A DNA stretch of 64,000 nucleotides, taken from Marsupella aquatica. Taxonomy: Eukaryota > Plantae > Marchantiophyta. Position 1 is the stretch's first letter, and every line of letters begins with the position of its first letter. The stretch spans positions 11,430,858-11,494,857 of the forward strand of contig OZ316895.1 of the NCBI GenBank assembly GCA_973895155.1, given 5' to 3'. The notes beneath the pieces are model-generated. The model did no database searches. It saw only the letters and a list, made by a program, of their open reading frames with translations, and had not been told where the DNA came from. A program made the position numbers and the translations under genes. Below, piece by piece: positions 13,074-45,425 of the stretch.

Positions 13074-13671
13074 GAAAATGGTCATAAGGGTTAAAATAAT
13101 GTATTTGAGTTGTTTGTCAAAGATTGTAATCTGTGGGGGCAATGTTTTCTAGAAGTAATATTTGGATGGATCACTCCCAGGAACCTTGCAACCCGGATGG
13201 ATCAGGTTACTCCTAACCAGAGAAGTATGGAGTGTTTTACAAAGAAATGTGCTAGACACAAGAGGATTTTCTGCAGTTCATCTAGGTTGATTGCTGCATG
13301 TAGGCGTTTGGTCAAATGTTTAAACACATTTGCTATCAGGCAAAGTGAGTTGCTACAAAGGAATTTAAAAACAAATCTAGCTAGCTACTTTCAAGGAAAA
13401 CAACCCTAGCTATTACTGTGTCCCAATAATTACATATCAAAATATGATTACTGTGTGGAATGTCATTCCAGACTATGATAAACACTATTATTTTGTTTAA
13501 AGTGTACATTCCAGACTATGATAAACACTATTATTTTGTTTAAAGTTTATTGTCACCTTTTGATGTGCAATTATTGGGGTGCGCGACTACTTGGCAAATT
13601 AAATTATCCAGATCTGACTTTATAGAGATCTATCAACTATTCCCTTAGTTTTGAGCTTGCCATAACTGCCA

Positions 13672-14019
13672 GAGGGATATGCTCAATAGACCCCCTCCAA
13701 GAGAAACTTTACTTGATCAGCCCCCTCCAAACTTTTTTGTCCCAATCAGCCCCCTCATTATGGCCCGTACCCTTTGCTCCCGTGTAAGGCAGTTTCCCCC
13801 GTGTAAAGGCATTACTGCACAGTTGGGAGCCATGCCACCATGCAAGGTCGCCTCCCGCAGTCGACCACACGACTCCGCTGCAGTCGGGCCGCAACTATGC
13901 AGTTTTGCTCCCCTCGCACTATGGTCCCTTATGAGCGTGAATACATCGTGGTTTATGTCTTCAACAAAATTTCTGTTTTAGGGCGCACATTGTTGGGGCG
14001 CGGTTTAGGGTCAAGCGCG
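13672..14019 (+). repeat. MULE left TIR (~350 bp)
   Basis: Highly similar reverse complement of ~43799-44174. This explains the twin ORFs 13679-13981 and 43865-44167. Confidence 0.93.
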
Positions 14020-20612: not shown

Positions 20613-23296
20613 ATGGCGAACCCCAATGCCCAAAACAACTGAATGCCCCAACTAAAAACTAAATCCCTAGCACTCTCGCTCTCTCTGGCGCTCTCAGGCG
20701 CTGCACAATCTACTCAGACCTCTCTCTGGCGCTGTAGTGCTGTCCTGTCTGTCCTCTACTACACTGGTCTCCTACTACCTCCTCCCTTTGTTGTCACTCA
20801 CGTGGACAACTTCAAAGACTCTGCTTTAGTCCGCTCGCCAAACGCGCACATTCTCCATGGAACACTCTATGTCGACCAACGGTCCCGCGCGCCAATAGCA
20901 TTGCGGAAGTAGATTCAAATTTGAAGACATTATGGTCAATGTCTTCAATATCAATGAAGGAAGTTAAGAAGACAACATGGTCGCTGTCTTGAAGTGCAAG
21001 GATGGAAGATAAACAGGAAGACAACATGAATATGTTGTATTCATCAAAGAATAATGGTGGAAAAAAGTGACAAGAGTCTATTTTGATGCACAACCAAAGT
21101 TCAGTAATAAAGTAACTAGTAAGGTTCAGTAATATCAACATGATATTGTGACCCAAATCCCTGACACTCTATTGCAGCCTCATTGGCCAATTCCATGCAC
21201 CTATCAATGAAAGCTTGTGGCAATTGTTGTTCACTATTTGGGAGAAGGGGCTGAGGCACAATGCTCTGGATTGGTCCTGTGCCTGCTGTTGGTGCTGTCG
21301 ATTCAATACTATATTCAGTCTGTAGTAGTTGGTCTTCCCAAGGAAAGGGTGACACAGGTGGGTGCTCCAAATTGACTGCATCACCATTATCCACCTGCAT
21401 ATGAAGGCAACTTTAAAATCTGTCCCTAGCATGAGACCACACATGCATGAAGCCCACAAGTAATGATATATACTTGTAAGAAGACTGTTAATGTTGGAAT
21501 CCTTACTCTTGCCGGATCTATTGGCGTCACACTATGGACTTTATCACAAGATCTTCGGTTATGTCCAACCTGCCCACACTTACTGCACCTGCACTTCCCA
21601 GTGTTAGGCCCCGCTTTCTTTGCCCTCGATTGAACTTGAACAATTGGAAGTCCAGCAATAGTGTTTGCTGTTGAAAAGGGTTCCACCCTGTTTGGATCAT
21701 CATCTAGTGGATATCTCAAGAATAGTTGTCCAAGGGAGTCAATCACTGATTCTTTGCCTTCTCCAAGAGCCCTAGGTGGATGCCTCCCTCCACGACCCTG
21801 TTCGATGCGGACCATTCTATGTCTACCCCTTTTCACAGCAGCCATAGGAGCAACACAATTTGGACTTGGCATTAAGTCTGATACAATAAAGCTAGGTAAA
21901 TCATTGTCATACAAAGCCCTAATTGAAGCAGTCCGCCAACATTTGTGAAAATGAGCAGAAAAATTTCTGCCTTCCTGGTCATCCCAAGCCATTATATGCT
22001 CACATGGCCACACCATCTCTTGCAGCTCCCAACAAGTGCAACATTTCTTTGGTGACAGTGACACTAGATACTCCTCACTTTGGGATGTAGTTTGAACCTT
22101 GGCTGTGGACGCACCATCATCAAACACCTGAGCATATGAAAACTTGGATATAATTACAAAACTATTCAAATAAAGAATACATTCATACTAGTGTATTTTA
22201 ATTCAACACCGAGCTATTAAGAAGACATTGATGTTACAGTATATATAGAACACGTAGCTAGTAATGCATACACAAGACCAGGCATGAAGATTACCTGCCA
22301 TTGACCAAACGTCTTGAGATTCTTGTTGTACCTGACCAGGGCTGGAATAGTGAGTACTTCCTGTCTCGCCAACGCAACTGCTTTCCTTTCTTTAAACTTT
22401 TGCTGAACATATACCCACATGCGCTCCATCAACTTGCAAGGAGCAAATTCGCGCAAGGGGAGTAAGCCTGAATTTGCTTGCTCAGCAGGGTTGCTTGTAA
22501 CCTTTGCCATGCGGGGAAGTGGAAAGGCATGCCTGGCATAAAGTTTTGCATCAAAACTTCTGATGTAGTCTACAACATTTGCATTCTCATGTGCCTTGAC
22601 GGACTCTGCCAGTCGCTTCAAACATGCTTCAAATCTGATACAGGTTCACAGGGAAAACATTGATGTTAATGTATACAATCATGTCATACACAGAGAAAAC
22701 ATTTGCGTGAGTGATATGTACTTCACATTCTGTATTTGAGGAGAGGTAATATTACTGTATTGAACACTGAGTATGCGGTGTATACATAAGAAGACAAATG
22801 TATGTAGAATCAAAGCAATGAAGGTTTTTGGACTTACTGTCTTTCATCGTTGGCATATATGCATCCTATAAAAATATCTGCTGCTGCTTTGCCATGCCTG
22901 TTCTTGACATTAGCTCTCAAGTGGTTTGCACATGCTGCTGCATGTATCTTACCTGGCCATACATACACTAGTACATATTAAGCTGATTTCCGATGCTCAA
23001 TTTTTGCGAACAATCGGCGTTCGATTCTTTTAGCATCGGAAATTCCGATTATCAAAAAATGGCAATATGCCATACTCTCGGCTTCGGATATCTTCATTTC
23101 TGATATAATTGACAACGGAACCTTTCCGATGCGTTAAAAAACGGATCATATCCGTTAGAAAATACATCGGATCCCTCAACATAAACTTTGATTGATATGT
23201 TCGATGTTTTTTGTAACGAAAATGATGTGCGTTACAATATTGATCGGAAACTTTCCGTAGTTAATAATAACGGATATTATATCCGATTGTGCTAAC

Positions 23297-23478
23297 ATGG
23301 CAAAGTCCGATGTTAGGAGAATGGGAAAGTCCGATGCTGGGAGTATGGGAAAGTCCGATTCTAGAAGAATGGGAAAGTCCGATGCTGGAAGAATGGGAAA
23401 GTCCGATGCTGGGAGTATGGGAAAGTCCGATGCTAGAAGAATGGGAAAGTCCGATGCTGGGAGTATGGGAAAGTCTGG
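23297..23478 (+). repeat. 24-bp tandem repeat (ATGGGAAAGTCCGATGCTRGRAGW), ~7.5 copies
   Basis: Directly visible in the sequence; mirrored at 24325-24505. Confidence 0.93.
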
Positions 23479-24324
23479 TTATGACAAAAAGAAATTTTTT
23501 GATTGTGTTAGAATGAAAAGTTTTGATGTGTTAGATGGGGTATGTGGTTGCACCGACATACTCTTCCCAAAAGATGCAATCATTCTTGCATGCATGAATA
23601 ACTTCATACTTGAGGCAAATGGACTTGAGTGTTGTTTTTGCCTCATTCCAAGACCCAACATATTTTTCCCTTACGGAAATATGTGCTCAACATGCCAAGT
23701 CCAAAATACATCATCTAGAAGGAGGTTGCTTGTCCCATGTAGTCTTTGTTGCAAGTCCAACAACAACATAGTTGATAAAAGATGAGACAATCAGGAGCCA
23801 TTGACGCTGAGGCTTTGGAAGGACCAAAATATCATCCATAACTAATAAGCCATAATTATCCCATATCAAATCTAATGAAGGAGGGCTTTACTATCGATGA
23901 ATGACCCCTGCCAGATTTCTATTGGTTTCTCCTAAGGGAATGTAATAGGGTAACTAGAATAGGTCACTTGATGCAAAGATCTAATCTCATGATAGAGAAA
24001 AATGGATCAAGAATGGGTCCAAATTATGGGTCTTAGTAAACTCACAAGTGTATAAAATCCCCAAACACTCTAAGTCAAACAACAAAAGTGCTAAGCTTGC
24101 ATGTACAATGTAAGGAATAAGAACCACAAAGTTAAGCTCATGTTGGAGGAATAGCAATTGGGATGGGTGACCAATTAGTTGAGAAAATTTGAAGAGTTCA
24201 CATGTCAAGGGAGATGGGCACCTAGCTCATAGTTCCAAATGAAAGTAGAAACCCAATTAAAGGAAGAGATGGGTGACCTGAGCATGTCGCGTCCGCTGAA
24301 ATGCATATCCCATTTTGATTGCTT

Positions 24325-24505
24325 CGGACTTTCCCATTCTCCTAGCATCGGACTTTCCCATTCTCTCACCATCGGACTTTCCCATTCTCCTAGCATCGGA
24401 CTTTCCCATTCTCTCACCATCGGACTTTCCCATTCTCCTAGCATCGGACTTTCCCATTCTCCCACCATCGGACTTTCCCATTCTCCCACCATCGGACTTT
24501 CCGAT
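24325..24505 (-). repeat. 24-bp tandem repeat, inverted counterpart of 23297-23478, ~7.5 copies
   Basis: CATCGGACTTTCCCATTCTC units. Confidence 0.93.
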
Positions 24506-25564
24506 AGAAGTCCGATTGTCGATATCTGATACTATTAAAATGGCATGTTGCGATGCTAGTAGTATCGGATATATGGTTTTTCAAATTTTATTTTACAAAG
24601 GCGTCCGATGTGGAGAGAATCGGAAAAAGGAGGTAAAATGTACTAGTGATAACTCACAACGGCAAGTAGACCTTTATGTCGGTCTGATATGAGTGGCATG
24701 TGAGGCGATTCAATGCCGTACAGTGATCTATCTACCAACACTAGTAGAAACCGGGGGGTATTTAGACCCCATTAAACGACTATTCAGTACCGTATAGGAC
24801 TTGGAAACGACTGGGAAGGACTCTAGTCCTTTATAGGACTGCGAGTCGTATGTTTTGTTACTATAATCAACTGAGTCCTTTATAGAACTGGTTTATAAGT
24901 CGTTTAATAGACTGGATTTTCAGTCTATTTTAGTCTTTGTGTGGGTAGCTTTGGTGAGTCGTTTTCAGTCTTTTATGGGCTGCGATGATGAGTCGTTGGG
25001 AACGACTAAAAAGGTTATGGAGGGTAGTCTTTAAATATACTTTGTGGGGTATGTATAAGTCTTTCATGTCAACTGGATATGAGTGATGAAGACCCCACTA
25101 TACTACTTGGAATGAACCCACTCTTGTGCACAAATAACATATTGCATTCATGTTTTATTGTGTACTTGGAATGAACTCACTCTATAAGTTCACCATTCAT
25201 CATGTTAACATTAGAATACATAGTTTCAGAAAGCCATCTTCTATACCATGTACACTAATATGAATTCACAGATTCAAACTTCATAGACTACAAAGAAGGT
25301 CACAAAGTATTCCTCTATACCATACACACTAATACTGAAATGATAAAATAGATTCAAGTATCATAGACAATCACCATAGAGCCATAGTTTGACATCAATC
25401 ACTTGTTTCATACATACAGAATTCAGAAATATCAATGTCACACACAACGTCTCCTTCATCCTCTTTACCAAATGGAAAAATTGGTACAGATATTTCTTGG
25501 ATCTTTCCAAGGCAATGTCAAAATGTGACACAATTCACATGATTCTATCTACACTTGCATTCAG

Positions 25565-28500
25565 TCACTGCAGACTAACACACTCTGATGGCCAGAGCAC
25601 AAGAGATCCTACTGCATCTGCAATTATTTCTTGAGGTGGATCATCGTCTCTATTCGGAAATGGCAAATTACAATCAGATACAATCACTGTAGTCAACAAC
25701 ACTACTACATGGTCATCCGGGACCACTTTGCCATGGAATTTTGCATGATCCGGTCGCAAAATGCCTGTACCCACACATACCTGCGAGTCATCCTCCCATG
25801 ATAGAAGATTATGGACTGGCTCTGCTGTGGCTATCACCTTCACCTTACCCTGGTTGTTTTTCTTGGCTTTCCTGGGTGGCTTATACATGACATTATTCAT
25901 ACCTTGGTTGCGAGTCATGACTTTGGCACGAGTGTTTTGTGCTGGTGATCGAGAATTGGCTACACTCTTCTTCAAAGAATCTGCATCCATATTTGACACT
26001 TCTGATTGTGTAGCAGGATTTCCCTGCGACATCATCTCAGTATCTGCCAACATTGTACTTGCTTCAATTGAAGCATCTACAATCTTACTTGCATCCAATG
26101 TTGCTCCCAAGTTTCGACGTCGCTTCACCCTACTCCCACTTGGTTGAGAGTCTGTCAACTCTGCATCAACTACAATTCAGTGTCATGTCCAACATAAGTC
26201 AATCACTCATCACATGTGCTAAATGTACATGTCACCAACCACAAAGTTGTCACTATCTCCTTACCATTATGAACAGCCTTCTTCCCCTTCTTTGCCATTG
26301 CCATATGCTTCATGTCTGCTTCTGTTGATCAATAAACACACCACAATATTCAGGTTGAATCTATTAACCACTGAATTGTTGCTCAACATTCATATAGAGG
26401 AATTTAAAGCATCAGCTTACCTGATACCTCCTTGGCTATGGTCACTGAGGCACTGGGCACATCTTCTTCATTATTGCTCTTTGAATCACCTGATACATCA
26501 ATCATGATGTCACTTCAGATCCCAGTTCATCCAACCAATTCTTACAGAAAAGATGACCTCTAACCGGCTTAAGCTTCACAAAACTCCATGCACTTTTCAA
26601 ATGTAATGTACTGGATCATAGCAGGTTACCTGTCTCAGCAACCTTCTTGCCCTTCTGCTTACTGATTACAGGGTCCTTCTCTGCCTCCACTCTTCCTGCA
26701 TTCAAACCATTCACTCAATTCATGAAAACTTACTTCTAACATTTGAACATAGGACACAATAAACAATGGGCCGGTGTCATTTCCATACATGTGTCAGATT
26801 TGCCAATTCCCTTTTTTGTTAACAAGGGCACACTTTGTACAATGTTGCCCTCATTGTTTGGTTGGGAACCACCCAATTTTTCAATCACAAGCTTGAAATT
26901 AGATTCCACTGATGCAAGAAGGTTCGCTACAGATGCCTCCACAATATCCAAACGATCAGCCAATTTACTTTCCACTCGAGGGAGTCCACACTCTAATGAC
27001 TTCAACCGTTCACACATCTCTGTGAGAGTTGTAACAGTTCCCTGTCATAACACAGCTTACATATCTCAGATAACTGTCCCCAAGAATTGGTTGCTTACTT
27101 CCTACTACATTTCTTTCTGATGCTCAAGGCCAAATAGTCACAAAACATACAGAATTACAACATAATCACCTGTTTGGAAGTCACACTTGTCACCTCACTC
27201 CTTTGTTTCATGAACTCCTCTCTCACTTCTTGTGCTGATGGTTCTTCACCTGTCAATTTCTTCTGCAGTCCACATCAACATACATATGAATGAAACCAAG
27301 TGTTGATTGTCAATGAAAATGTAATAATGGTAGCAAGATGATAAGTTTGAGGCTTACTATCAGGCATGTCACTGCCTTACCAATTGTTCTTTCACTGGAG
27401 CATAACTTCCTCTCCCAGCCTATGAAAGGTGTTTCACTTTGCCTCGAGCATTTGACATCAGTTCACTCTTGCTCTGTCCAGCCTCCGACATGAACCCTTT
27501 GATTAACCGTGTCCATTGATCCAGTTCCAATGATGGGGGTGGTGGCATTCTCCTGTTAGAACCATTGTCTATCCACATCCTTTTCAACATATGCCTCTCT
27601 TGTTTCAAAATCCTCATTGCATAATCTGATATGCAATCTTCAACTGGGCCCTTACCATCATTACCAACATAGTCCCACCGTTCAAGAATGTCCTTGCAGA
27701 TAGCAGCCCAATCAGCTTTGTTCTGACTCCTAAACTCTGTAATGCTCAAATCTAACCAACGCAATACTTCTCCTCTTAGGTCAGAATGCCAACGGTTCTT
27801 ACCATCATATGTGGGAGTTATCCAACCTTCGGAATTCACTTCTACTTTACCAAATTTGTTATTGTCTCCTGCCTTGGTACTCCCTGAAGCGCTACTAGGT
27901 GTCCCTCCACGGCCTGGATTGCATTGTCCAAACCTCCCTGGAGTCCCTGCACATTTACAGGATCCATTTACAGTCACTTACATTAGGTAAGTATGAATCA
28001 TAAATCCTGCTGCCAAATATACACTAGACTTCAGAGCAATTCTGCAATGACCAAGTTACCTCTCCCTTGGCGCATAGATGGTTCTGGACCACCTGTCCTA
28101 TTGCTTTGTCTTGATGAATTAGGGCCGTTTCTCCCGCCTGTGAATGATTGCCGCCTATCTGAACGTGGATGGCCTTTGTTGTTTTCGTGATTGTCCCAAT
28201 CAGAGTCTGCATACCAACAGGTACATGCCACACTCATGGACCTATAAAATAAACTCTTTGCCCTAGCTACACATCAGATAAGTCCATATTGAGCTAAATC
28301 TCTACTACCATCACAAAATCACTAGCACAAGGCACTTACTTGTCCAATCATCCTCCTCACCTTTCCATTGCCCTCTGTACCCGTCTCTACCACGCTCTGG
28401 GTGTTCATATTCATCCCATCCATCTTCTACTCCATCATAGTCATCATCATAATTATCAGGCGTCCCTTGCCAATAACTCTGGCTCATTCTAGGGTATGGA

Positions 28501-28682
28501 TTATGTGATTTCTCTCTAGCTGCCCACCTACCTGGGACTTGATGAGGGCCCTGTGCATCCTGCATAGGTGCATTTTTCTGTGAGCCCCCTGCATCTGGGT
28601 CTCCATCCATATCCAATCTTTCCTCTTCACCCCACTCTCCAAGCCCCATGTCTGTCTCCATGTCATCACCCTCTTCCCCCAT
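25565..28682 (-). pseudogene. TnpA-like (Ptta/Tnp1 En/Spm) multi-exon gene
   Basis: RHMLKRMW..PPPSLELDQWTRLI..W/F..QSKSELMSNARGKVKH*AGRG (Ptta-like), followed by a coiled coil. The C-terminal FHGKVVPDDHVVV..LPFP..IADAVGSLVLWP is Tnp1-like. Premature stop at 27420. Confidence 0.8.
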
Positions 28683-28859
28683 AGCTTCTGCATAGCACCC
28701 ACAACCAAACACGGAGAATCAACACACTAAATTCAAAGTATCAATCAATTTCATGCATATCCAACTATCCTAAACATCATTCCAGGCAGCAATTCCCGTT
28801 CTGTGACTCTGTGCAGGTAGTCATCCTCAACCTCATACTTGCCAATCGCCAGCTGTTGC

Positions 28860-31800
28860 CTATTGCAAATCATCAACCTCATCATATTCCATTTGCCCAG
28901 GTTCATCATATGTCTCTCTCAATGTTAAGGGGATGTAGTCAGTCCCTGCCCGAGTTGGAAGTACAGTCTCATGACTAGGATGCTCGAATGCAGCATGGTC
29001 ATCCAAACTGAACTCTACTTTACTTCCATCCATCCACCTATTCCGTGCTTGGCTATGGCATACCACCCTCCAGCCATGTGACTCCTCCACATCTGCAAAG
29101 AAAGCCTGTTCAACTTGGCTAGGGAAAACAAAAGGCTCAGATCATTCTGGTACTCTGGACCTAAAATTGGCCAACAAGAACCCATCATGATCACGCTTCA
29201 TGGTGGCCCTTGGTCTCTGCCACTCTGATTTCATCCATGATCCCTTCATCAATATCACTGGGACACTTGTGTTACCATAATTCAACACCCAAATGTCGGT
29301 CAACTCCCCCACGTAACCCATCTTCATCCACCCCCTCTGTTCTTCAGAGGTTCTCTGCTCAAACACAGAAATCAAACCACAATCATATGATACACAATGG
29401 TCACCCTGCTCATCCCTCACTCGATAATGATTTCCATAAGCTCTCATCCATTTGTAGGTCAGAATAGACAATCATGGTGGCACAGATAGAAGATACAAAT
29501 CCTTCTCCATATCTGGGTGATGTCTACTATGCTCTCGAATTGTCACCCGAATCCACTGCTCGAACTGTGGGAAGGGATCCTGCTGCCCAGAGTGTGCAAC
29601 TTTTTGCATATCATATCCCTGCAATATGAGGTACAGGCATAGTTAGGTCTAAACAACACATGACAACCTAAGATCACCCTTGGAACAGACAAGAAGCATC
29701 ACAATAAAGGCAAGTCAATTCAATCACTCACCTCCACCATGGTTGCATAGGCTCTGTGTTTGCCAGCACATATGAATGAGCCTTGTCTCGAATCGCAACA
29801 GGCAGCTGAACAGCACGTCCCACACCTTCAACAACCTCGCCACTCACTCCATCATCTTCACCAGATTTCCAAACTCTTGTCATAGCTTCACCAGACCCAG
29901 CCATGTACTCTGTTAGGAATCCCAATGTCTCATCCTTAATGTACCCCAATGCCATGGAAGCCTCTGGCCTGTAGTATGTTCTCACATGACCTTTCAACAA
30001 CTTCATGTATCGCTCCATAGGGTACATCCATCTGGTACTGACTGGCCCATACTGCCCTAGCTCTTCTACCACATGGATTAGGAGATGAGTCATAACATCA
30101 AAGAAAGCAGGGGGGAAGTATATCTCCAAGTCACAGAGGACATAAGCAGCATCCTGCTTCAACTGCTCCAATCCTTGGGGATCCCACACTTTCACACATA
30201 TACGGCGAAATACATTGCACAGTCGAAGAATGACATTACGGACTGGTTTCTGCATGAGACCTCTGAGGCATAGGGGCAGAATGTGCTGCATCAACACATG
30301 GTAGTCATGTGTTTTCATACTGCCAAGTTTATTCTTTGTAATATGCTTCTTGAAGGCACCAGCATAGCCAGAGGGCACTTTCAGACAGCTCAATCTATAC
30401 AAGAATGTCTTCCATTCATCCTGTGTGCACACATAGGGAGCTTGGAACTTGAGAAGTACATTGGGATTGCTTGCATGGGGCTTCAACCAAAGGTGAGGGC
30501 GAATCCCCTTCTGTTGCATATCAGCTCGAACTGCTCTTGTATCTTTCTCACCCGACAAGAACTTCAGCAAGCTCTCACAAATATTTTTCTCAATGTGCAT
30601 GACGTCCACATTGTGTTTGCTGGGCTTGAATTCCTGCACTCCACAAAGCAAAGAATTCAACAACAGAAACACTAATTAACCGCATAGGAGGATTGTAACC
30701 AACATCAATCCACCATTGCTCCAATCTAAAATTGCAATCATACAGGGGCTGGAGGCTAAGTACATTACCCTCCAGTACTCCAACTCCAAGTCCATCAAGG
30801 TCTGTCTTTTCACACCGTGTTTCACCACTGGATCCTCAGGTTCTCGATCAGTGGCACTTCTCTTGTCCTAATCAACCTTCCTGGCTGCCCACCTCAGGAC
30901 TTGCTCTCTGGTGACCCTCTGTGGTGGGCCACGAAGCTCTGTTTTGTTGTTGAAGTGTGCAATTTGAGACCGTGTGTGCCTGTAAGGATGATCAACAAGC
31001 AGATACCTTCTATGCCCCTGAAATTTCATACTGTGCAGGGCATGCGACCACTCACTTGTCACATTTTTCCCACATGGTGTGCACCCCACATAGCCCTTTG
31101 TCACTCGTCCAGATATGATGCCATGGCCTGGGTAATCTGCTATATCCAGCAAACAAATTGCATGCAGTCTAAAGGGGCTGGGTCGAAGAAGCCCCTTCAG
31201 AACATCATGGGTTAACACCCCTTCTATCCACAAAGTCTTCCACTCTTCCACTGCTGGAGCCAACATGATATCTATGAATTGCTCGGTCACAGAAGCTGGT
31301 CCAGGGATTAACAGCACCATCATGACAAAAAACCTCTTTGTAGTCATCCATGGGGGAAGGTTGTAATTTAGCAGCGTAACCGGCCAACATGAATAACGGT
31401 TGTTTTTGTCTCCAAATGGGTTTACTCCATCCAGTGATAGACCAAATCGAAAGTTCCGCTTCTCTGCAGCAAACTGTGGCCACCTCTCATCAACAAATTT
31501 CCAATGGTTGGAATCTCCAATGTGACGCTGCAGGCCATCACTGCTCTTGTTATCAGGAGTCCATGTCATCAGCTTGGAAATGGCAGGGCATCTAAACAGA
31601 CGTTGTAGTCTAGGAATGAGAGGAAAATGACGAAGAACCTTGGCAGGGTGTGTACATTTCCCTACATTCTTGTACCTGTGCTTACCACAATGAGGGCATA
31701 TCAATTTATCTGCATGCTCTTTGCGAAAGAGAACACACCCATCAGGGCATGCGTCAATAGACACATAGTTCAGCCCAAGGTTAGACATCAATTTCCTAGC

Positions 31801-32559
31801 CTCATACATATTTTTTGGAATTGAATTACCATCTGGTAACACATTTCGGCGCAGGAAGGTCAACAACTCTGTCACAAATATATTGGGAACATTGTGATTG
31901 CCACAGATGTTCAACAACAACACGACAAAACCCAGCTTGGAGCAGTTCGACCCCTCGTAGATAGGAATGCAAGCTTCTTTGATGTGTTTTGGGCCCCCAA
32001 ACACCCACTCCCTCTCTGTTGCACCTTCCCCAATGTCAAAGTCAGGTTCAGCTTGGCCGTCGCCAATGTGTGGCTGCGGTTCATTGTCCTCTTTTGATTC
32101 CACTGTGTCGTAAAAAGCATCAAGGTCTTCAAAAATCTCTTGAACCATTCTTGGGACATCCATCCCACCGTCCTCAGTGACTGCCTCTGCATCTCCATGT
32201 TGGTCATCCATGTTCTCATGTTGGACCCCAGGACCATCCTCTGCACAGTCTATGTCCTGCTCTACGTAGTCTCTACGCCTAGCTGTATTAGAATCCACAA
32301 AGTCAGCTCTCCACTCTTCATCAGAGGAGTCTTCTTCTGCTGGTACATTCCAAACCCTCCACCGAGGGTGCCTTTCATGCCGCAGCAGGTGAAGGTGCAC
32401 AGTGTTCAAACTCAACGACTTGAATCCTTGGCACTGTGTGCATGGGCATCTCATCCTCCTACTCCTACCTTGGGCGGCCCGGGCTTGTTCACGCATCCAC
32501 AATTTAGAATCATGATGCCTAATCCTAAATGGGTTGTGAAGAGGCAACCTTGGAGCCAT
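28860..32559 (-). pseudogene. TnpD-like CACTA transposase (Tnp2 core plus DUF4218/DUF4216-like regions)
   Basis: CPCTQC..HL..H, IDACPDGCVLFR..CPHCG..RY, LRHFPLIPRLQRLF, LSLDGVNPFG, YNLPPW, DYPG, DVMHIEKN, MKTHDYHVLMQ, RWMYPMERYM, EPFVFPSQVEQ. Intron 30634-30768. In-frame stops at 30868 and 29142. Confidence 0.95.
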
Positions 32560-32885
32560 CACTATACACACGCACTCAGCACCCTGTCATTTTATTATGC
32601 AAGTGAAAAATACACTTCCTGTTAAGGATTTCACCCCCGACTGTACTTGCCAAAATACGTAACGTTCCAAAAAAACAAAAAAACAAAAAATATAGGTGCC
32701 TGAGTCATGTACCTATTCTCAAGTGAATGAGACAAAATTCCTAAATGTTTGAGGGTGTCAACTCCTCCGCTGTCCTCACATGTACTGCCTCTGCACGTAC
32801 ATCCATGACCATATCAGAGTCCAATCATGTATAGTCATAGACACAGGTGCCAGGTGCGAGACCGGTGTGAGATGTCCTCATCTTA

Positions 32886-33293
32886 CTACCACATCAAATA
32901 CGGATACCAATCCTGTTGTCGATGCCACTCAGCCCTGAGGTACTCAGGCATGTACATTAAGTCATCAAGGTCTAAACCCTGCTCATGCCATGGTGGTCTT
33001 CGATCCGTGCCTACAAGCAGTGGCAGCAGTGCCCTCCATGGTGCACATGTTGCTACCAAGTCCCTCCACTGGGTACTAATTAGTCTATATTTGCAGATAT
33101 CTTGTGCGCCAGACACCACAAGAACCCTCAGCCAGACATGTGTAAGAACTATATCATCTGCCAAATCAGGCAACAAGGAACCACCTACAGCATCGTGCTT
33201 GTCTAACTCATCTGCTGAAAAGTAAATGTCCTCTTCCGACTGTGCATCCTCATTCACCACAGCATTCACAACACATCCAAGGTCTGTAGGCAT
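32886..33293 (-). CDS. CACTA cargo ORF with F-box-like motif
   Basis: LLPDLADDIVLTHVWLRV....CKYRLISTQWRDLV resembles the LP.LPddi...IL.RL....R.VS..WR.L F-box consensus. Confidence 0.62.
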   Translation of the reverse strand: MPTDLGCVVNAVVNEDAQSEEDIYFSADELDKHDAVGGSLLPDLADDIVLTHVWLRVLVVSGAQDICKYRLISTQWRDLVATCAPWRALLPLLVGTDRRPPWHEQGLDLDDLMYMPEYLRAEWHRQQDWYPYLMW

Positions 33294-33886
33294 TATCTCG
33301 CATGGAAGCTGCCTCTTCTAGACCGTCTGCACTTAGTCTCCCCAATTCCTTCTTCTGCAAATACCACACTGAACCCCTTCATAATGGTATTTCTCTCCTT
33401 GTCATGCTCATTCAATATAGCATCTGCACGCATAGGATGGTGTCCTATGTTGACAACAGGTCCATATTGGACAGAAGCAAAGTTGGGTTTCTCTGCCGCT
33501 GCTTCATAGGCTTTCTTTTCAGCCAAAGCCTCTGCAGTGGCCTCCTCACTCTCCCACAACTCATATTGCTCAGTACTCTGTACACACCTATGTTTAACAG
33601 AATCGATCAGCCAAGAGACTTCAACTACTTTTAGACCTTGGTTGGTAATGGCAGAATCAATGAAGGACCATGACCACTTGTTCATCACATCCAGCCATGT
33701 CCCCGCAACAACATGTGTAGTCTGTGGAGTGATGTCCTTGACTTCAGTCCCATGGAACTCTGAGAATCGTTTTTGTACGATTGGCCAACTCACTTGGGTG
33801 AACCCATAGTGGCCAGGAATCAAAATGGCTTTGATTCCAGCCAACAGAGGCGGGTGGTCAACCTTTGTACGTTTCCTAGAGGCCAT
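33293..33886 (-). CDS. CACTA cargo ORF with a single BRCT domain (DNA polymerase lambda/Pol X N-terminal type) and an N-terminal NLS-like segment
   Basis: MASRKRTK..LLAGIKAILI..IVQKRFSEFHG....TTHVVA....VVEVSWLIDSVK....TEQYEL shows the THV and W..DS BRCT signatures. Confidence 0.8.
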   Translation of the reverse strand: MASRKRTKVDHPPLLAGIKAILIPGHYGFTQVSWPIVQKRFSEFHGTEVKDITPQTTHVVAGTWLDVMNKWSWSFIDSAITNQGLKVVEVSWLIDSVKHRCVQSTEQYELWESEEATAEALAEKKAYEAAAEKPNFASVQYGPVVNIGHHPMRADAILNEHDKERNTIMKGFSVVFAEEGIGETKCRRSRRGSFHAR

Positions 33887-34484
33887 GTACACACGGGCCA
33901 CCTAATCACTGCAGACCGAAAGATAATGCGTTCACCTGATAATCGAAGGGCCCTTAAAATGCTGCGTTTATAACTTGGTCCAGTCCAGTCGTCTGGTGAG
34001 TCTCTGCTTCGATTCCAAACGGGAGAAATATTGGGACAAACGTACTAGACACCTGCAAGCATGCACCTCATAGTTTGAATATGTGCCTTCACAATATTGA
34101 AGGTGACAAGTGCAATTGTTTTGTGATGCCACATACAGATGTTGTAATTGGGCAGACATTCAATGAGAATACAAAATGTTGGTACACTTTAAGGGAATTC
34201 TCGCAAATTAAATAGCCTTGTAACTTATATGCTCATAATGAGAAGTCCTGATTTAATTTAAGCAGTGTCATGTAAGTCGTGATCAAAATGATTGCAGAGT
34301 TAAAAAAGTTCCTAGAAGGCTTAAGGGGAGTTTTTGAAGGCATGTACCCAGGAACAAGTAATGAACTTAGGGTACTTGTTGCCTAAGCATCCTCTCCTAC
34401 AGAGGTCCTTCTTCTCAAAATTGGAATGTCTGCAATCTCCAAGGTATCCACATCAGGTGCACTATGCATGTACATTATTCAGGT

Positions 34485-35161
34485 TCAAAGCCAAGAAATG
34501 TGATCTCTCATGGGAGTGTGCAAAGTAGGATCTATGGCATGGCGATGACAATAGAAGATCCATCGATCAACACCATGTGCAGAGTGATCATAGATGTGTC
34601 TGTCACAAGCATAGCCTTCTGCTTGACGCTCCTTCAAACAATGAAAGTGCCACATGGTGGGACACCTAACATAGTGGACTATGTCCACCCAGAAATCTTC
34701 ATCGTGCTGACCACATGCCTTGCACTTATGAAGTGGGCAAGCTGTGGCAAGATCGGGCAAACATGAAAAACAAAAGAACCTCACACAATATCTGTCAGGG
34801 CATTTCCTAGTGGTGGAGCATCAACAGAGCCCTCATAAGACCCCAACTTCCCACACTGTGCACACTTAGCCTGCTTCTCCAAACAATCAGTGCACATCCA
34901 GCCTCCCTGGTGTGCTGACGGGAGGCCCACTCCTGGACAGTTGTTTTCTGCAGCAAGGTCAGACTCCGGGTTGAGGTGGAAATGCCTCATGCAAGGGCCC
35001 TCACATATGGCTAAGCCACCACCATCGTCACAAATGGCACAACAATGAGTTGCCTTCTGGAAAATCTGACTTGCGGAGAAGTTACTACCATCTGGCCCAA
35101 CTACACCTGTGTTGCTCACCTCTGTCCCCCGCTTCTTGGCTCGGATTTTAGGGCGTGCCAT
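34485..35161 (-). pseudogene. Stand-alone EDM2-like (NSD-type) triple PHD finger protein, ~225 aa, with one frameshift near 34812
   Basis: CAICDDGGGLAICEGPCMRHFH..C..WMCTDC; CAQCGKLGS..[fs]KCPDRYCVRFFCFSC; CPLHKCKAC..RCPTMWHFHCL; tail IFYCHRHAIDPTLHTPMRDHI, similar to the EDM2 IYC..HEID..L.TP.RDH motif. Confidence 0.82.
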
Positions 35162-35830
35162 GCCTACGCATGAGACAGATAGTACAATTTAGCAGAGTGC
35201 ACAGACAATACAATTTAGTGCAATGTACAAAAAGTACAGTGTAGCATATAGACTAGAGTGGCAATTGCTACTGCAATGAAATGTTCACACACATGTGCAG
35301 AGTAGACATACTTTTTGGTTTGTTGAGCCCACACTAAAAACTGATCCCCTCGTATAATAGCTCCACCTACACCTCAATTTTGTGGCTATGATTCACCAAA
35401 GGAGATCTGCAACAAGATTTAATGCATTTGAATCACATATAACAGTCGTGACATGTAAAATAGGCATTTTTTGAACAGGATTGGTATCAAGCAGTGTGAT
35501 CAGGGTTGTAATTTATACATCCTAAATAGGCTATGATAGTGAATGAGACAAATAAGTTAGGCATAAATCACTTTTTCCAGGTTATCACATGGCCCATTAA
35601 TTCCAGTCTTTGAAAGGAGACTTTTAAGTGAGCTTGCTAGCCTCTTAAATTAGGATATTGTACTTAGTGCAGCCATAATAGGATAAGTTATGTACTGTTG
35701 ACCCTAAACCCTGGACCCAAAATTGGTCATAATTCAAAATCTTAAGTAAATATCCTCTCTGTTCAAGTCAAAGTGTTAAGTTATAGGTCAATGGTCTCTG
35801 GTTTGTGCATGCGGTGTGACAAATGGTCCT

Positions 35831-36280
35831 CTAGAGTGTGTGATCCAAACATGTGTAGACACCAAAGTGACCGGTGGTGGGGTCTGGGAGGGCAGGACAA
35901 GTGACATCGCCAGGCACACTGCAGGATGGCGAGTGGTTCCAGATGATACATTGTGCTCTGTGAAAAAACCGACATCCAAGAGAACGGTCATCCAACTCTA
36001 GGCCAGAAGCTCTACAGGCAGGACAGTCATATTGGCAACTGTGCACACACCCTTGGGCCCTAATTTGTGGCGGGTCATGTACAAGAGACAGAAATACCAA
36101 GGATGTTGGGAAGGGTGGAGAAGCAGGTACAGGCCGGCTGTAGTTGTTCCTGGCAACAACTGGGTACTCAAAGTACCATGCAGACTGGGCTGGAAGGATC
36201 CCAAGTCTGACATACTCAAGGTGCAACATCTCTGCCTTGCGTGCAAGCCGCACATGTTCAGCGTTGCGGGTCCTCACCAT
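35831..36280 (-). CDS. CACTA cargo ORF, Cys/His-rich, unknown function (149 aa)
   Basis: ATG start (MVRTR), uninterrupted, co-oriented with the other cargo. CxHxCxxxCxxC cluster. Confidence 0.45.
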   Translation of the reverse strand: MVRTRNAEHVRLARKAEMLHLEYVRLGILPAQSAWYFEYPVVARNNYSRPVPASPPFPTSLVFLSLVHDPPQIRAQGCVHSCQYDCPACRASGLELDDRSLGCRFFHRAQCIIWNHSPSCSVPGDVTCPALPDPTTGHFGVYTCLDHTL

Positions 36281-36505
36281 AAGTGTTGCTTTTGTGGAGC
36301 AAGGTGAGCAGGAGCTGTACTTGCCTCACCAACAGCAACCAACCTTAAATTATCAGTTCCCACTCACTGTGTCATTCCATTGGTTCCAGCTAGGGGTCAC
36401 AGTGTAAACATAGCATGAAACACTCCTAATCAACTTGCTTACAAACTACAATATCCAGAAAGAGTGAAAGTCTCACCCTCCAGTGAGCAGCAGAGAGGTA
36501 GTTCA

Positions 36506-37036
36506 CTAGATGTGTTGATGTGCAGTTAAACCTCCACTATTGCTTACTTCTGGTGTATGCTGCTCAGAAGAAGACATATTAGTAGCAGCAAATTGCAAAT
36601 AATGGCCATAAGCAAACCGTGAGAGTTTGCAGAATGCTACGACAAATCCATCACAGCAGTGCTCCACAGGAATGAAACCAAGCAAAATTTGGTGACCTCG
36701 GCCAATGACAAGGCCAATGTAGTGAACAATCCTTGACCGATCAGGATATGGATTGGAATTACAATTAGTCAGCTCTTCTTCTTTGTTTTCTAACTCTGGG
36801 GGAAATGAGCATGACCAGGGAATTCTCTGAGAAATAGAAGTGCACAGGGAAAATGAAATTGGCTCATTCAGCTGCGCAAGACCGACCATTGCAGCATACT
36901 TGGACAGTTGTTCCGCAATACATAAAATACCCTGACTTACATGCAATCGATACAATCTGCTTCTGTTGGCTGTCCTACAGCTCATGGCAGTGCCGTTGGG
37001 ATAGGGTAAGTGAATATTGCCATAGCTGAAGCACAT
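36506..37036 (-). CDS. CACTA cargo ORF, unknown function (176 aa)
   Basis: Long ATG-initiated ORF, co-oriented with the other cargo. No motif recognised. Confidence 0.3.
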   Translation of the reverse strand: MCFSYGNIHLPYPNGTAMSCRTANRSRLYRLHVSQGILCIAEQLSKYAAMVGLAQLNEPISFSLCTSISQRIPWSCSFPPELENKEEELTNCNSNPYPDRSRIVHYIGLVIGRGHQILLGFIPVEHCCDGFVVAFCKLSRFAYGHYLQFAATNMSSSEQHTPEVSNSGGLTAHQHI

Positions 37037-40000
37037 TGAGCTTGCAGCAAGAAGTGAAGGAGCATGGCCAAAAGCAGAAAAGACAGACAGGTTTTACAAG
37101 AAGAAACTAACAACCGCCAATCTGCTCAAATCCGCTGCATAGATCAAACCCTCCAAACTACACAGCCCTCCTTTGAAAACAATCCAATGTGCTTTGGCTG
37201 GTGGATGACAAGGACTGGGAGAAGAGGAAACGTCTGCACAATCAATCCAAATGACGGGACACAGAGACCAGGCACAGAGAGGATTTGTGCTTAGACAAAA
37301 ACCACAAATTGTAGCATGGGTGCCATAGCATTCTAGACAAAGCACAAAACATAGAATCTATGAATCTATGACTCATGGACTAACAAAATGATTGGGTAGC
37401 ATGGCAAAAGGAAAGACAAATTAATTTCAAAATGACAACATGGCCCATTTCCGCCATTCATTTGACGTTGCTAGGTGTCCGTAAGATGACTGACCCACAG
37501 ACAATCCCGACAACCTCATCTGACAGACTGCTTTTCTAGTGTGAAGAAATACATGATTACAAGCAACACCACGCCTCATCCAAGCAGGGAATTGAAAACA
37601 TAACCATGTCATTCCTGTATTGGACAGTGTCCTCTGCCATTGCACTGCATAGTTGTTATTCCATGTTGGTTGTCAACAGTTTGTTGGCTTGCCACAGCCT
37701 AGATAGAACAATACAATACTGTACATGAATACAACAAGAAAAATCTGCATACAGCGATGGCCCGGTCACTTGAGGAAAAAACAAAACTAAGAAGGCAGGC
37801 ACACGGGCAACCGAGAAAAAAAGCTAGTGGCGCCTCGCGGAGAATCCAGAATGGTAATGCCCTTGCCCAGAAGCTTGGGAAACAAAAGAGAAAAAAGCAA
37901 AAACGAGCTACCGACCACCATCTTGACCAGGCCCGCCACAAGGTATGGCTGGAGGCTGTGGTCCCCCCCTTAGTAAAGAAAAGGATGCAAGTCGGTGCAC
38001 GGGGCACAAGGCATGTTCGGATCCAGGGAGGAGCACAACAGTAATGTCAAGCAAGAAGTGTGGAGAGACCAAACAGTAAACAAAAATAGGGGAGAACAAA
38101 CATACATCAGCAGCAGCAGGAAACGAGAAAGTTGATTTGGGAGGGATTGTAGGGAGAGAGATTTTGGTGGGCTCGGCTACGCGTGAAATATCAGGAGATA
38201 GATGCGCGAGAGAGTGAAGAGGGTGGCAAGCGGAAGACAGGTTGGGACTGGACCCTTGGTGCCGGGGAGTAATATATGGGGTAATATACGTAGAGACAAA
38301 GCTGTACTCACTTGATTGAGTAGGCAAGTGGGTGGACGAAGATCAACAACCGCAGTAGCAGCACAGCCAGAGAGGCAAGAAAGGGGAAATTTCAGCAAAG
38401 GTAAGCGACACAGACAACTCACCCTCCGTCTCACCCTCCCAGCTCCAAAGTTGCAAGAGCAAGAAGTCAAAGGCACTGAAACAAAGCGGGTGGCAGTTTC
38501 AGTATCTCAGGCAATGCAAAATTAATCCATACTTAATCAGCCCTGGCCACACATTCCTTCAAAGCCCCTCATACTAGCAAGCAGGTCTGGCCTATGAATC
38601 TTGTAGTGCTTAACGATACAAAGCCTTCCCAAGTACCAATTCAAAAGTAGCAGAAATAGATTGAAAGCTAGTTCCGATGATAGCTCCCAAAAGCTTTCCT
38701 CAGCCCGATTCCTATGCACATCAGAGGAGCTCAAACCATTTAGAAATGAGATCACAGGTTACTCTTGACAATCTCAAAAATGCCACAACCTAAGCATTGA
38801 CAACTCCGTCCCCCCATTCTAATTTCTCCGACAAGTTTGCCTTAAAGCACATCCACTCGCAGTTCAAGCAGATTCAGAATCATCATAGACAATAGAGTGT
38901 TCCACCATAGCCCACGGTAGGTCCACAGCCATCGTAACGAACGCTCCGCCCCCGGGGCTTATTAGTATTGCTCACTTTTAAGAAGGGCAGTTTTCGCAAA
39001 AGCAGTCTAATTGCCTAGACTGCACTAGAAAAGTTGGAGGCAATATCACATCGGAGCATTCTGCGTCTAAGGGCCAGCGACGCCGTTCAGGAGATAGATG
39101 CGCGAGAGAGTGAAGATGGTGGGGAGCGGAAGACGGGTTGGGACTGGACCCTTGGTGCCGGTGGGTAATATGTGGGGTTTCAATGAACAATGGGCCAGTT
39201 TGAGGAGGATTAAGAAGCGCGCACCCCACGGTCTTGTGTGGTGGTTGGGTGGGGTTTTGTTTGATAGAAGAAGAAATCACCATTCTCTTATGGAAGAAAG
39301 AAAATCGCAGGAAACAATGGGCAGGAGAACAAGGCATGTAATAGAGAACAACGAGGCATGTAATAGAGTACTTGCGGTTACTCTAACGGTGCACGAACAC
39401 TCACCTTTGTCTTCCGCTTTGTCTGCTGTGGCCAACAAATCCTAGAGCGCTGCCAAGCTTGGTGGTTGCTTGATGGTTGAAAGTGTGCAGCTCACGTCCC
39501 TACCTCAATGTCCAACTCAATGTGGGATGCTGCAGCTTCTCTTGGTCGCATCTCCTCTTGGTTGCATCTCCTCCTTGTCGCAGCTCCTCTTGGGGTTCAC
39601 AGCTAGCGCACAGCTAGCGCGCAGCAGCGCTCGATGGTTGACAATGCGCAGCTGAGCTAGGAGAAGAACTGAATGACTGTGGCTGCTCTTCTCTGCAGTC
39701 CAAGCACCCGGCTGGCAGAATGCTACGACACCTGAAAGAAGCACACTTTCAGCTGCATGGCCAGGACTAACCTTTGGCTGATGACACTGATAACCAATGG
39801 CAGCACTGTCAATTGCTTCCTCCTAACAAACAACCGGCTCCCGATTCTGCAACTGCTCTTTAAGCTCCACGACCTCCTTCACAACTCCAATGTCCACCTT
39901 CCGCAGTGGTTGCCTTCCACAGCGCCTTCACAACTCCAATGTCCACCTTCTGCAGCAGCAAACGATTGCCGCCCTGCTCACGCCTCCTTTGAATGCCTCG

Positions 40001-43000
40001 GCAACCTTGAGGACACACTACAATTAAACTTCCGCAACAATCGCCTCACCTTACGATAGACCTTGGCACCACAACACCTTCCCAGATCACAGCTGCTCCC
40101 CTCAGCTAAACCCTCAGCGCCTCAGTCCCCAGATCACAGCTCCTCCCGAACTGCAACTCACTCAAAACCTAAGCACTCAGGAGTGCCCTCAACAATGAAC
40201 AATGGGGCAACTCAGACCGGAAGCAAAGAGCCCTGCGACTGTAAAAGCCTTGGAACAGTACGCAGCCGCGCAAAACCTCAACATTTGACAGGCATTGGAT
40301 GCTCTACCCTAACCAACACTCACTAAACCAAGACTTAGTGTGGCCGTCTCCTCAGCAGCTCGCGATCCGTAGACACTGATTGTAGCTCGGCAGAGGACAA
40401 CCGAGGGTCAAGTTCGTAAGAATCCCCCGTTTCCCTCGCAAAACCCTTTGCAAAACCCCGATCCTCCCACCCCGTCTCCCTAAACTGTGCGACCCTAAAC
40501 TCCCTCTGGCTGTTGTGTTAGTGCCCCTACAGAGAGAATGAGGGGACCCTATGCCAAAATGTGGGCAAAAGGATTGACCGTTGGGGTGAGCCGTTGAGTG
40601 GGGCGAGGCGTTAAGTGTGACCCCAAAAATTCATTTAGGCAAAATGAATTGTGGTAAATTGTGACCTGTTTTGAGAGTTGAAAGATAATCAGAAGTAAAG
40701 GGACCATGGAGAAGACGGGGCCAATGTAATTAAGTCAAGCATCACTCATTCAAAATCCACATGGACATAGTTGGGTACTATATGAGACACCAGGGGACAA
40801 GACATTTTTGAAGGGTTGGCATATTTACCCTCATCCCTAAACTTGGATGTGGTGCACATAACATCCACTCTCCTACCCCAAGTACAAAACAACTCCTAAC
40901 AACTTAGGCCCAATGTAGTCACTTGTGCCCAACCATGTTCATTAAGAGCCTAAATGTTTTCATTTCACCCACATTGCATGTTGTTGGGGGTTCCATGGTC
41001 TGTTATTATAATGTAACTCCTCATGTGAACTTTGTGAAATTTAGTATTTAAGGGACCATGGAGAAAGCGGGCCAATGGAGTAATTGGAACCATGAACCTT
41101 TTTGGTCACAAATAAGGCCATCTAATGAGTTATGCCCCTTGCTATCACCATCTTTATAGAATTAACCCTCTTCAACATAAGTGAACATTACCCATGTAGT
41201 GCTAGACTATTCATCGTTCACAAAGTAGCAAGGACCCTTCTCATAGTCTTTTAGAGAACCATATAACACTAATAGTCGTTTGTAGTCTTCAACAAAACCG
41301 GCACAATGGGAGCGAGTCGTTTCAAGTATGGAAAAAGGACTTAGTGGGCTTAGTCCTATAAGGTATGGTCTAAATGGCCCCGGTTTCTACTAGTGCAATT
41401 TCAAAAACCAGATCCAATTATCTGTGTTCTCAACTGGAGCTACTGCGTAACATAGAATCAATCTTTGGCCATTTCCATCCAAACATGTAGCTAAGAATAG
41501 TTGAGTGGGGTACTTCCTGTTCTTTGTATGACATGCATCAAGAGAGATGAGAGGTTGAATGTAGGTACATGCTTTTTGTGTAGCTGATGGGCAAATGAAA
41601 GCTCGACAGAAAATGTTGGAGTTTTCCATTGGGGACCAGACTGCCACTGCACCAGAGTCAGTCTTTCTCACCTTGGCAATTAATGCCGGAATCATTTGAA
41701 ACGTGTCTTCCTACCCACCAAGGTGCAGATCCCGTACATAGTCTTTTGCTCGCCACATTTGGTGGTAAGTGCTGTTCTTTTTATAATCCCCTTGAAATCC
41801 GCAGAGTAGTTCTTTGACCGGCACCTTCAGATTTCTACACACTCTAGGCGCCAGTGTGTCTCCTAATCACACTGCCTTTTGTGTTGGGCCCCTCCACTTG
41901 TGTTTAGATGTTGGACAATTGTGTTTCAGCTCACACACAGTAATGATATGAGCCCCACTGTGAGCTTGCCTGTGACATCGGACCCTGAATGGGCAGTAGG
42001 CTGAACAATCAAAACCATCTTCATCGTACTCTGGTGGGGGCCTAAACCTAGAAAACTCCCCGCATACTCTTGTGGTAGAAATCTTCCTGACTTTTACCGT
42101 GCCAGGGGCATGTGACCCAGGTAGCCACACACTGCTATGCTGCACTACTGTGCGTGGTTTCTTTGCCATTGTTGTGTTCCTCTAGAGATAGTTTGGATCC
42201 AGAGGTCCAAGGGGTGCACGAACCTCCTATTGCAATCCACATAGAACATATTCATGTTATTGTATATGGAAACACAGAAGACAGTGGTGTCATTGTATAC
42301 AAAATACACACCACAATGGGGATGTTTATATGAAACATAGAAGACACTCATGACGTCGTATACAAAACATTGATGGTAAAATGCAAAGAAGACATTCTGG
42401 TTGAGGTATACCTGTGGAGCATTTGTGAGAACGATTGCTCCAAACTGGTTTGTTGATCCTGCCATCTGTTGAATAGCAATTTGAAACTCACAGTCTTCCA
42501 TCTGCAATGGCAGCACAAACATGCCATGCATCAAAACATAGAGTGACAAGTATTACATTTCTAACCCTTCAAAAAAACCACAATGATATAGGTATGGACT
42601 CTTGAAAAGCTTTACCTCTTCCGCTGTCAATAATGGTTCTGCATAGGCATTGTGTGACCTTTGTCTACCCCTTGGTTCGGATGTCATTCCTCTGTCACGG
42701 AACCCACTATACTCACCGTAACGACTGTTATAGTGCCAATCTAATTCATGTTCATCTTCATCATCCAATTCATGGATATACAGTGAATTTTTATCTTCTG
42801 AACTATCACTACATTCAGAACTGTCTGGCCCAGGTCTGATGTCACCACTTGACTTCCTTTCATATCAATGAGCAATCTTACTAAATCGGCAAACCCTTGT
42901 TCAAAAATTGGGGGCGGTTTTAAGTCTATACACTACTCGGCCATGCATCACAGCCCATGAGGCCAAACATCTATCAAATTCATCAAAATTGCTAAAACGC

Positions 43001-43798: not shown

Positions 43799-44174
43799 CG
43801 CGCTTAACCCTAAACCGCCCTGACAATGTGCGCCTCGACAATGTGCGCCCCGACAATGTGTGCCCTAAAACAGAAATTTTGTTGAAGACATAAACCACGA
43901 TGTATTCACGCTCATAAGGGACCATAGTGCGAGGGGGGAAAAACTGCGTAGTTGCGGCCCGACTGCAGCGGAGTCGCGTGGTCGACTGCGGGAGGCGACC
44001 TTGCGTGGTGGCATGGCTCCCAACTGTGCAGTAATGCCTTTACACGGGGGAAACTGCCTTACACGAGAGCAAAGGGTACGGGCCATAATGAGGGGGCTGA
44101 TTGAGGCAAAAAAGTTTGGAGGGGGCTGATCAAGTAAAGTTTCTCCTGGAGGGGGTCTATTGAGCATATCCCTC
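43799..44174 (-). repeat. MULE right TIR
   Basis: Reverse complement of 13672-14019. It has three copies of a ~15-bp CACATTGTCGGGGCG unit where the left TIR has one. Confidence 0.93.
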
Positions 44175-45425
44175 TAAGTGCCAAGTGCCCAAAACACAAA
44201 AGGAAACCTTGATCTGTATTTAACATACAAATTTAATTAAAATATGAACAGTAACTAAACGCTGTGACTGGTTCACTATAACGAGATGGACACGTATGTT
44301 CATCCGGGCCCTTAAATAAGAAGGCAAAAACACGCACTGGATTGTCAGAGAATCTTTGGCCGACTCTGATCCCCGACATTCCTCTCGTTGCAGAGTCGCC
44401 GATCGACGATCCTACATGAATCCATGGCCAGGATCGACCGCTTTAGTCTCAATCGGAAAGTGACCCTGTACGGGAAATCGCTCACCTGAGGCGGTTAACG
44501 ACTGAGTAAAGTCGCGAAAACTCCCGCGCTTCGGGAAAGATCACTCCACGACTGTGCGCTTGACATGCGTCGTCGATATGTCCAATCGACAGCTCTCGCA
44601 GACCTGGTGGGCACAATGATGTTACCAAATGGCCCTTCTCCAGTTCTCCTCGTCCCATGGGTTAACTATAATAAATCCCGATTTTCCGAGCCGAACAGCT
44701 GATCTTGAGTTCCATAATCATGATACGACGACGCCGGACTGACATTTAGGGTGATAACGTGATAACCTTGTTCCTTGGGTGTAAGCTTAGCCTCCGAATT
44801 CGGTAAGTTTAGGGTTTAGGTAAGTTCAATGTTACTCCATGACAAAGTGGCGGCTGGTTTGCTAGACTCTGTTAATGTGGTGGTGTAATAATATCTGGGA
44901 TGAGTAAATTACCACAGTATTTGTGGATGTCAATAATAGGTGACTTACTATAATCCAAAGGACACAGAGGGCTTGAGTTGATGGTTTTAGCGACTATGGC
45001 CATATTTCTCTGAGTGATCCTCCTCTGCTAGTTTACTCATCAGCTTCACCAGGCTTTCAGCTTATGCTGAGTATGGCTTTAGTTCCTTAGATATTGTGAG
45101 GGATTCTCGGTTTTGGCTCTTTGGTTGTCTTGAGGTTTCTCTTTTGTTTTTTCTCATCATTGGTTGGATCCTGTCTCCTGGTTTCACATTTAATTTTCTT
45201 TGGCAGTGATGTATGTATTGCATGATCTCAAAAAATCAAACTCTGACTTGTTATTACACCAGGCTATGTTGTAACACTAAGCTATCAGATACATCTTAGC
45301 TTAATCTACACACCTTACTATGTAAACCTGATCATTCTAACTGGTAGCCTGTTTACAAATTTCCATCTGGGCACAAAGGAATTCTGGCCATTTGTTGAAA
45401 AATGGTTTTTCATCACTAGTCAATT

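Follow-up and report, generated by a model that had tools for sequence, protein, structure and literature searches.

Autonomous CACTA/EnSpm transposons, which encode TnpD and TnpA, have several features in common with the element described here: terminal inverted repeats (TIRs) starting with CACTA, a 3-bp target-site duplication and a transposase with Transposase_21 and DUF4218 domains. Pack-CACTA elements carry captured, host-like extra sequence, which is likewise found inside our element (PMC13317346, PMC3814199; accessible parts of both papers). In contrast to Pack-CACTA cargo, the extra sequence here accompanies a transposase in its element; it comes as ORFs the size of whole genes, for which diverged relatives but no donor turned up. 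Other DNA transposons, with VANC in VANDAL elements and TET/JBP in fungi, contain extra genes that are thought to affect host chromatin control, as far as the accessible parts of the sources describe them (PMC5735166, PMC10398659, PMC12730594); in plant DNA transposons, the accessory genes in print target silencing. These systems also combine a DNA transposon with extra genes, although the superfamily or host and the encoded domains differ. Their functions have been published, whereas the roles of the cargo at the present locus are predicted from sequence.

What appears to be new is a multi-copy plant CACTA family with genes for PHD, twin-BRCT and F-box-like proteins upstream of the transposase; gene capture as such is already known. 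A literature search with Repbase, subscription journals and supplements outside its scope returned no paper joining CACTA or EnSpm with BRCT, and titles and abstract openings contained no description of a PHD, twin-BRCT and F-box-like layout upstream of a CACTA transposase. Neither "BRCT" nor "F-box" occurs in the main texts of PMC13317346 and PMC13547354.

The window, by which we mean the whole 64,000-nt stretch of DNA analysed, contains one large CACTA/EnSpm element with a TnpD transposase (PF02992 and PF13960). It is flanked by a CAA target-site duplication at 24736-24738 and 41396-41398. The insertion target is the transposase ORF of a MULE (PF10551, E 4e-6), whose frame stays open across the empty site when the CACTA element is removed. 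Along the minus strand from 5' to 3', the element consists of about 6 kb without a recognised ORF, the PHD gene, the BRCT and F-box-like ORFs, tnpD and, where tnpA would be expected, ORF pieces.

Table 1 Features of the large CACTA element, numbered by position in the window
Feature	Position	Strand	Details
CACTA/EnSpm element	24739..41395	-	16,657 bp; identical 18-bp TIRs starting CACTA
Spliced ORF pieces in the tnpA slot	25565..28718	-	Assigned by position alone
tnpD transposase (Transpos_assoc, Transposase_21, DUF4218)	28860..32559	-	PF02992 E 6.6e-59, PF13960 E 2.1e-27
3' part of F-box-like gene	32886..33305	-	Acidic stretch, F-box motif (residues 41-88), conserved 45-aa tail
TAATG	33291..33295	-	Part of ATA ATG (Ile-Met) codons in the F-box frame; P0003 is colinear
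Deletion junction	33307..33324		18 nt covered by no listed contig
5' part of twin-BRCT gene	33326..33886	-	NLS-like start, BRCT1 (residues 13-112), helix, linker, 20 residues of BRCT2
PHD-finger cargo gene (NSD-like PHD1 and variant PHD)	34485..35161	-	PF23011 E 9e-5, PF23004 E 0.0012, both under cut-off

We call this copy broken because in-frame stops interrupt tnpD at 30870 (TAG) and 29144 (TGA) and the PHD gene falls into two halves whose different frames overlap near 34810, an apparent 1-nt frameshift. Another TAG, at 28862, could break tnpD a third time or could lie before a splice site. The pieces in the tnpA position have no informative Pfam match, nor does any ORF in the roughly 6 kb at the 5' part of the element (35400-41380) give a useful one; within the latter region lie a direct repeat of 92 nt (38191, 39087) and a stretch rich in GC. 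The CpG observed/expected ratio is 0.36 in the element versus 0.59-0.75 in two genes outside it, as would be expected of a methylated repeat. The PHD gene product has a basic N-terminus and presumably resembles the PHD repeat of EDM2. According to the accessible part of one source, EDM2 is a histone-binding regulator of transposon silencing (PMC3632883).

The same MULE holds a second, non-autonomous CACTA-like element of 1.7 kb (22966-24648), located 90 bp from the large one, with the ends CACTAGTACAT, an apparent ATA duplication (judged by eye) and inverted arrays of 24-nt subterminal repeats. Inverted repeats of 331 nt at 13671-14001 and 43845-44175 are 97% complementary and are likely the TIRs of the MULE holding both CACTA elements. 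Pairs of long inverted repeats at 11775-13072 flank a short fragment (12326-12670), which we take to be a Copia-like RNase H. From their translations, the plus-strand genes at 1420-2208 and 48749-53078 are presumably host genes similar to malonyl-CoA:ACP transacylase and a KEG-like kinase. The spliced genes in the window point to a land plant as the probable host.

Two minus-strand ORFs meet upstream of tnpD. The first (33886-33293, 197 aa) matches the Pfam BRCT profile PF00533 with E 8.6e-4 (19.9 bits, cut-off 21.3), and the second (33293-32886, 135 aa) resembles an F-box (PF00646, E 0.081, below cut-off). As a preliminary description of the locus had it, the last base of the BRCT ORF's TAA is also the A of the F-box-like ORF's ATG, the F-box frame of this copy runs into a stop within a few upstream codons, and the pair precedes the transposase, whose ORF begins 327 nt further on, at 32559. 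The same description proposed that the TAATG overlap may serve as a stop-start signal, or that a frameshift in the last BRCT codons may yield a fusion protein, and asked whether related copies encode a fusion or conserve TAATG.

We examined the junction of the two ORFs in the contigs of eight public runs, out of at least 12 matching runs. In two of the eight (X8 and X9) the junction is not covered, and in X7 only its F-box side is, leaving six informative runs (X1, X2, X3, X5, X6 and X7) from five studies, with X1 possibly representing the source sample. On the BRCT side, contigs of five of the eight runs (X1, X2, X3, X5, X6) leave the window sequence at 33325, the base after codon 187. On the F-box side, again in five of eight (X1, X3, X5, X6, X7), they leave it at 33300/33306, with loose ends of up to 241-255 nt. 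The loose ends were interpreted from 30 letters each, and both reading-frame comparisons were made by hand. Read in the BRCT frame, they give L-Y-K-S-I-V-V-E-L-G versus M-Y-K-S-L-V-I-N-L-G in P0001, the closest protein. In the F-box frame, the loose end of X1 is open and aligns colinearly and without gaps with the F-box-like protein P0003 (10/21 identities in the segment that runs from G-L-V over the ATG to C-V), placing the Met of TAATG opposite an Ile of P0003. On both sides, the sister copies thus stay in frame, running into a second BRCT domain on one and into a longer N-terminus of the F-box protein on the other.

No contig or joint among those listed spans 33306-33325, and the X6 bin depth of 123.1 is the value computed for zero cover of 33301-33324. 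Within the window, no piece of at least 10 nt of the 18 junction letters has another copy. Comparison with the homologs indicates that at least 107 BRCT codons, a stop and about 49 F-box codons are missing; if the genes do not overlap, the deletion therefore probably removed at least about 470 nt. We conclude that the TAATG overlap is, very likely, the scar of an internal deletion in one broken CACTA copy. Intact copies would with good probability encode two separate genes, twin-BRCT and F-box-like, judging from the homologous proteins. The explanation as a whole, in which the scar goes together with intact copies whose two genes are likely kept for accessory proteins, we regard as probable.

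The window BRCT ORF comprises one full BRCT domain and about 20 residues of a second. It is 59% identical to residues 1-187 of P0001, a protein of 294 aa with two BRCT domains, and nothing aligns beyond residue 187, which corresponds to the codon just before the break. Identity follows the domain structure, at 69/100 in BRCT1, 18/34 in the next region, 3/20 in the linker and 14/20 at the start of BRCT2, and both proteins start with a basic NLS-like motif. P0001 itself exceeds the cut-off of the BRCT profile, with 56.4 bits over two stretches. Searching 1.84 billion representatives with a family profile gave 18 matches, 16 of which are BRCT-only proteins or pieces. The remaining two, P0019 (trypsin repeats) and P0021 (a scallop BRCA1-like protein), were treated as non-members. 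Full-length twin-BRCT proteins of 264-321 aa occur in seven clusters, members included. The six clusters other than that of P0001 are 16-28% identical to it (alignment A3), and their source annotations read just "hypothetical" or "BRCT domain". An F-box profile matched 0/35 stored proteins. These relatives appear to form an unnamed family of stand-alone proteins, none of them fused to an F-box. An Atlas search with P0001 gave generic BRCT clusters alone (scores <0.9), an NCBIfam scan gave nothing useful, and neither metagenome scans with alignments A1 and A2 nor a viral scan with the transposase revealed a relative.

AlphaFold, run on 18 sequences, gives two domains with pLDDT >90, a helix, and a linker (143-162) with pLDDT <50, at a pTM of 0.48. 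The model predicts two independent BRCT domains joined by a flexible linker. The assignment of the BRCT fold is solid, and the closest structure to BRCT2 is the BRCT domain of PARP4 (Z 15.9, rmsd 1.6, 96 residues aligned), followed by XRCC1. The tandem BRCT proteins TopBP1/Rad4, BRCA1 and LIG4 also have two BRCT domains per chain, and this group provides the best profile and Foldseek matches. The element protein differs from these structures in a partly disordered linker of about 55 residues and in the lack of a predicted fixed packing (pTM 0.48, rmsd 9-19). Phosphopeptide-binding tandem BRCT domains pack head-to-tail and have a pocket with Ser/Gly and Lys. In alignment A3, judged by eye, the residues of this pocket seem to be missing, and AlphaFold predicts no packing.

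The preliminary description had named the domain a Pol-lambda-type BRCT. The BRCT fold holds, but Pol lambda does not stand out among solved structures. Against PDB sequences, the family profile does match human Pol lambda (E 2.9e-5), but at rank 26, with Rad4 (8e-9), REV1 (3e-8) and PARP4 (2e-6) placed above it. A single-sequence search with BRCT2 alone gave TdT as the best match (E 0.021), and no Pol X BRCT is among the best 50 structural matches listed for this domain. The 18 family profile matches include no Pol X protein. We rejected an identity as a Pol X protein (lambda, mu or TdT), as the family members consist of BRCT domains alone, without the Pol X catalytic domain. Plant Pol lambda has the BRCT fold in common with the element protein, which differs in having two BRCT domains and no polymerase domain; the two kinds of BRCT domain may resemble each other, and a Pol lambda type is one candidate for those of the element.

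The F-box-like ORF has lost its N-terminus in the window copy. It is 55-56% identical to P0002 (170 aa) and P0003 (183 aa), with 28-32 of 48 residues identical in the F-box motif and 29-30 of 44 in the tail. The F-box match lies below the Pfam cut-off of 20.5 bits in all three proteins, the window ORF reaching 13.3 bits and P0002 19.3 bits (PF00646, E 0.0011), and the best PDB match, FBXL5, is weak (E 0.41). Residue 55 of the F-box is Leu in the window versus Pro in the seven covering runs, P0002 and P0003. In the acidic stretch before the motif (33210-33254), the subfamily of runs X2, X5 and X6 differs.

Selection on the accessory genes seems to us somewhat better supported than its absence, in view of the sequence comparisons. 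That the domains are kept far better than the linker fits a constraint on the proteins. A synonymous share of 6/31 among the substitutions listed in sister contigs for the BRCT ORF, and of 5/11 for the F-box-like ORF, is a minimum count across mixed subfamilies rather than a dN/dS value, with the indel-adjacent rows 33458, 33459 and 33462 excluded. The 6/31 in the BRCT ORF gives no sign of purifying selection in this mixed set of subfamilies.

An alternative with the same scar is that the genes are passively captured host sequence, as in Pack-CACTA elements, and do nothing for the element. Capture by CACTA elements has been published (PMC3814199, PMC13317346; accessible parts), and the low share of synonymous changes in the BRCT ORF would agree with it. 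P0001-P0003 and the distant twin-BRCT relatives are known here as proteins, from protein sequences alone and not from CACTA surroundings, which leaves room for passive capture. However, the 18 matches among 1.84 billion representatives include no named host donor gene and comprise instead a diverged stand-alone family and two likely unrelated proteins. Conservation tracks the domains, and the 3-nt insertion that marks the subfamily in X2, X5 and X6 (33459 and 33462) keeps the frame. On balance, we consider passive capture unlikely and retain genes kept for accessory proteins as our reading.

A second alternative, which we find improbable, is that intact elements splice the BRCT exons to the F-box exon, giving a BRCT-BRCT-F-box protein that would send a repair factor to an SCF ligase. 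The two ORFs are adjacent and co-oriented, and the other genes of the element have introns. The F-box is followed by only about 45 residues without a known domain, and the region upstream could thus supply the part that binds a substrate. On the other hand, full-length twin-BRCT proteins end in tails of their own, terminating 29-77 residues past the last BRCT motif in all seven clusters, where protein ends in the searched collection are gene calls that ignore splicing. P0002 and P0003 start with their own Met-led N-termini. A search for longer F-box forms, covering 322-2000 aa only and thus weak evidence, found none. In the window copy, we found no donor-like site for a splice between the two ORFs upstream of the junction.

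It is highly improbable that the junction arose in the assembly and that the plant has no deletion there. None of the runs, not even X1 with the best cover, has a listed contig across it, but the two TIRs and the duplicated target site show no irregularity, and a single-copy junction low in depth could fall outside the listed contigs. The conclusion on TAATG is the same in either case.

That TAATG is a functional stop-start signal, or the site of a frameshift giving a BRCT-F-box fusion, is barely conceivable: the overlap is there in the window sequence and the deletion has left one whole BRCT, but the signal is missing from sister copies in five studies, its ATG lies inside a coding frame, the copy is broken elsewhere too, and a chance overlap is expected for one phase in three. 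The three phases that a junction at 33306 could have lead to a stop at this TAA, to a stop 19 codons further on and to a fusion of the ORFs; TAATG occurs 72 + 67 times in the whole 64-kb window. Read out of frame, it serves as the stop of the shortened BRCT ORF. The proposed stop-start coupling and the frameshift fusion are therefore unsupported, since on either side of the junction the other copies read on in frame, the ATG is internal and no fused protein was found. Instead, a single break at 33306-33325 cuts both ORFs, and in other copies this place is occupied by additional sequence.

For intact elements with separate genes, we can sketch a possible role. The twin-BRCT protein would be nuclear and, at sites of excision and insertion, would be a two-handed adaptor or else a decoy for host factors that respond to DNA breaks. 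SKP1 would be the partner of the F-box-like protein, and the PHD protein would read histone H3. The handling of repair factors is a reasonable idea because both domains are CACTA cargo, the BRCT protein is conserved domain-wise and it has a basic NLS-like start. An adaptor or decoy also has a basis in Arabidopsis, where Pol lambda binds LIG4 and XRCC4 via its BRCT domain and has been linked to the repair of transposon excision sites (PMC4444747, accessible part). We put forward the repair-adaptor role of the twin-BRCT protein tentatively, as one possibility. The wider proposal, that a high-copy plant CACTA lineage keeps a PHD, twin-BRCT and F-box toolkit with which it redirects or degrades host factors of silencing and of the DNA-break response, is more speculative still and rather doubtful at present.

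The deletion scar itself requires no mechanism, and interest shifts to the element family behind it. If the proposal is true, the three-gene toolkit would be a transposon counter-measure against DNA repair rather than against DNA methylation. If the twin-BRCT and F-box-like genes are selected in mobile copies, the steering by a transposon of the repair of its own breaks would become directly testable.
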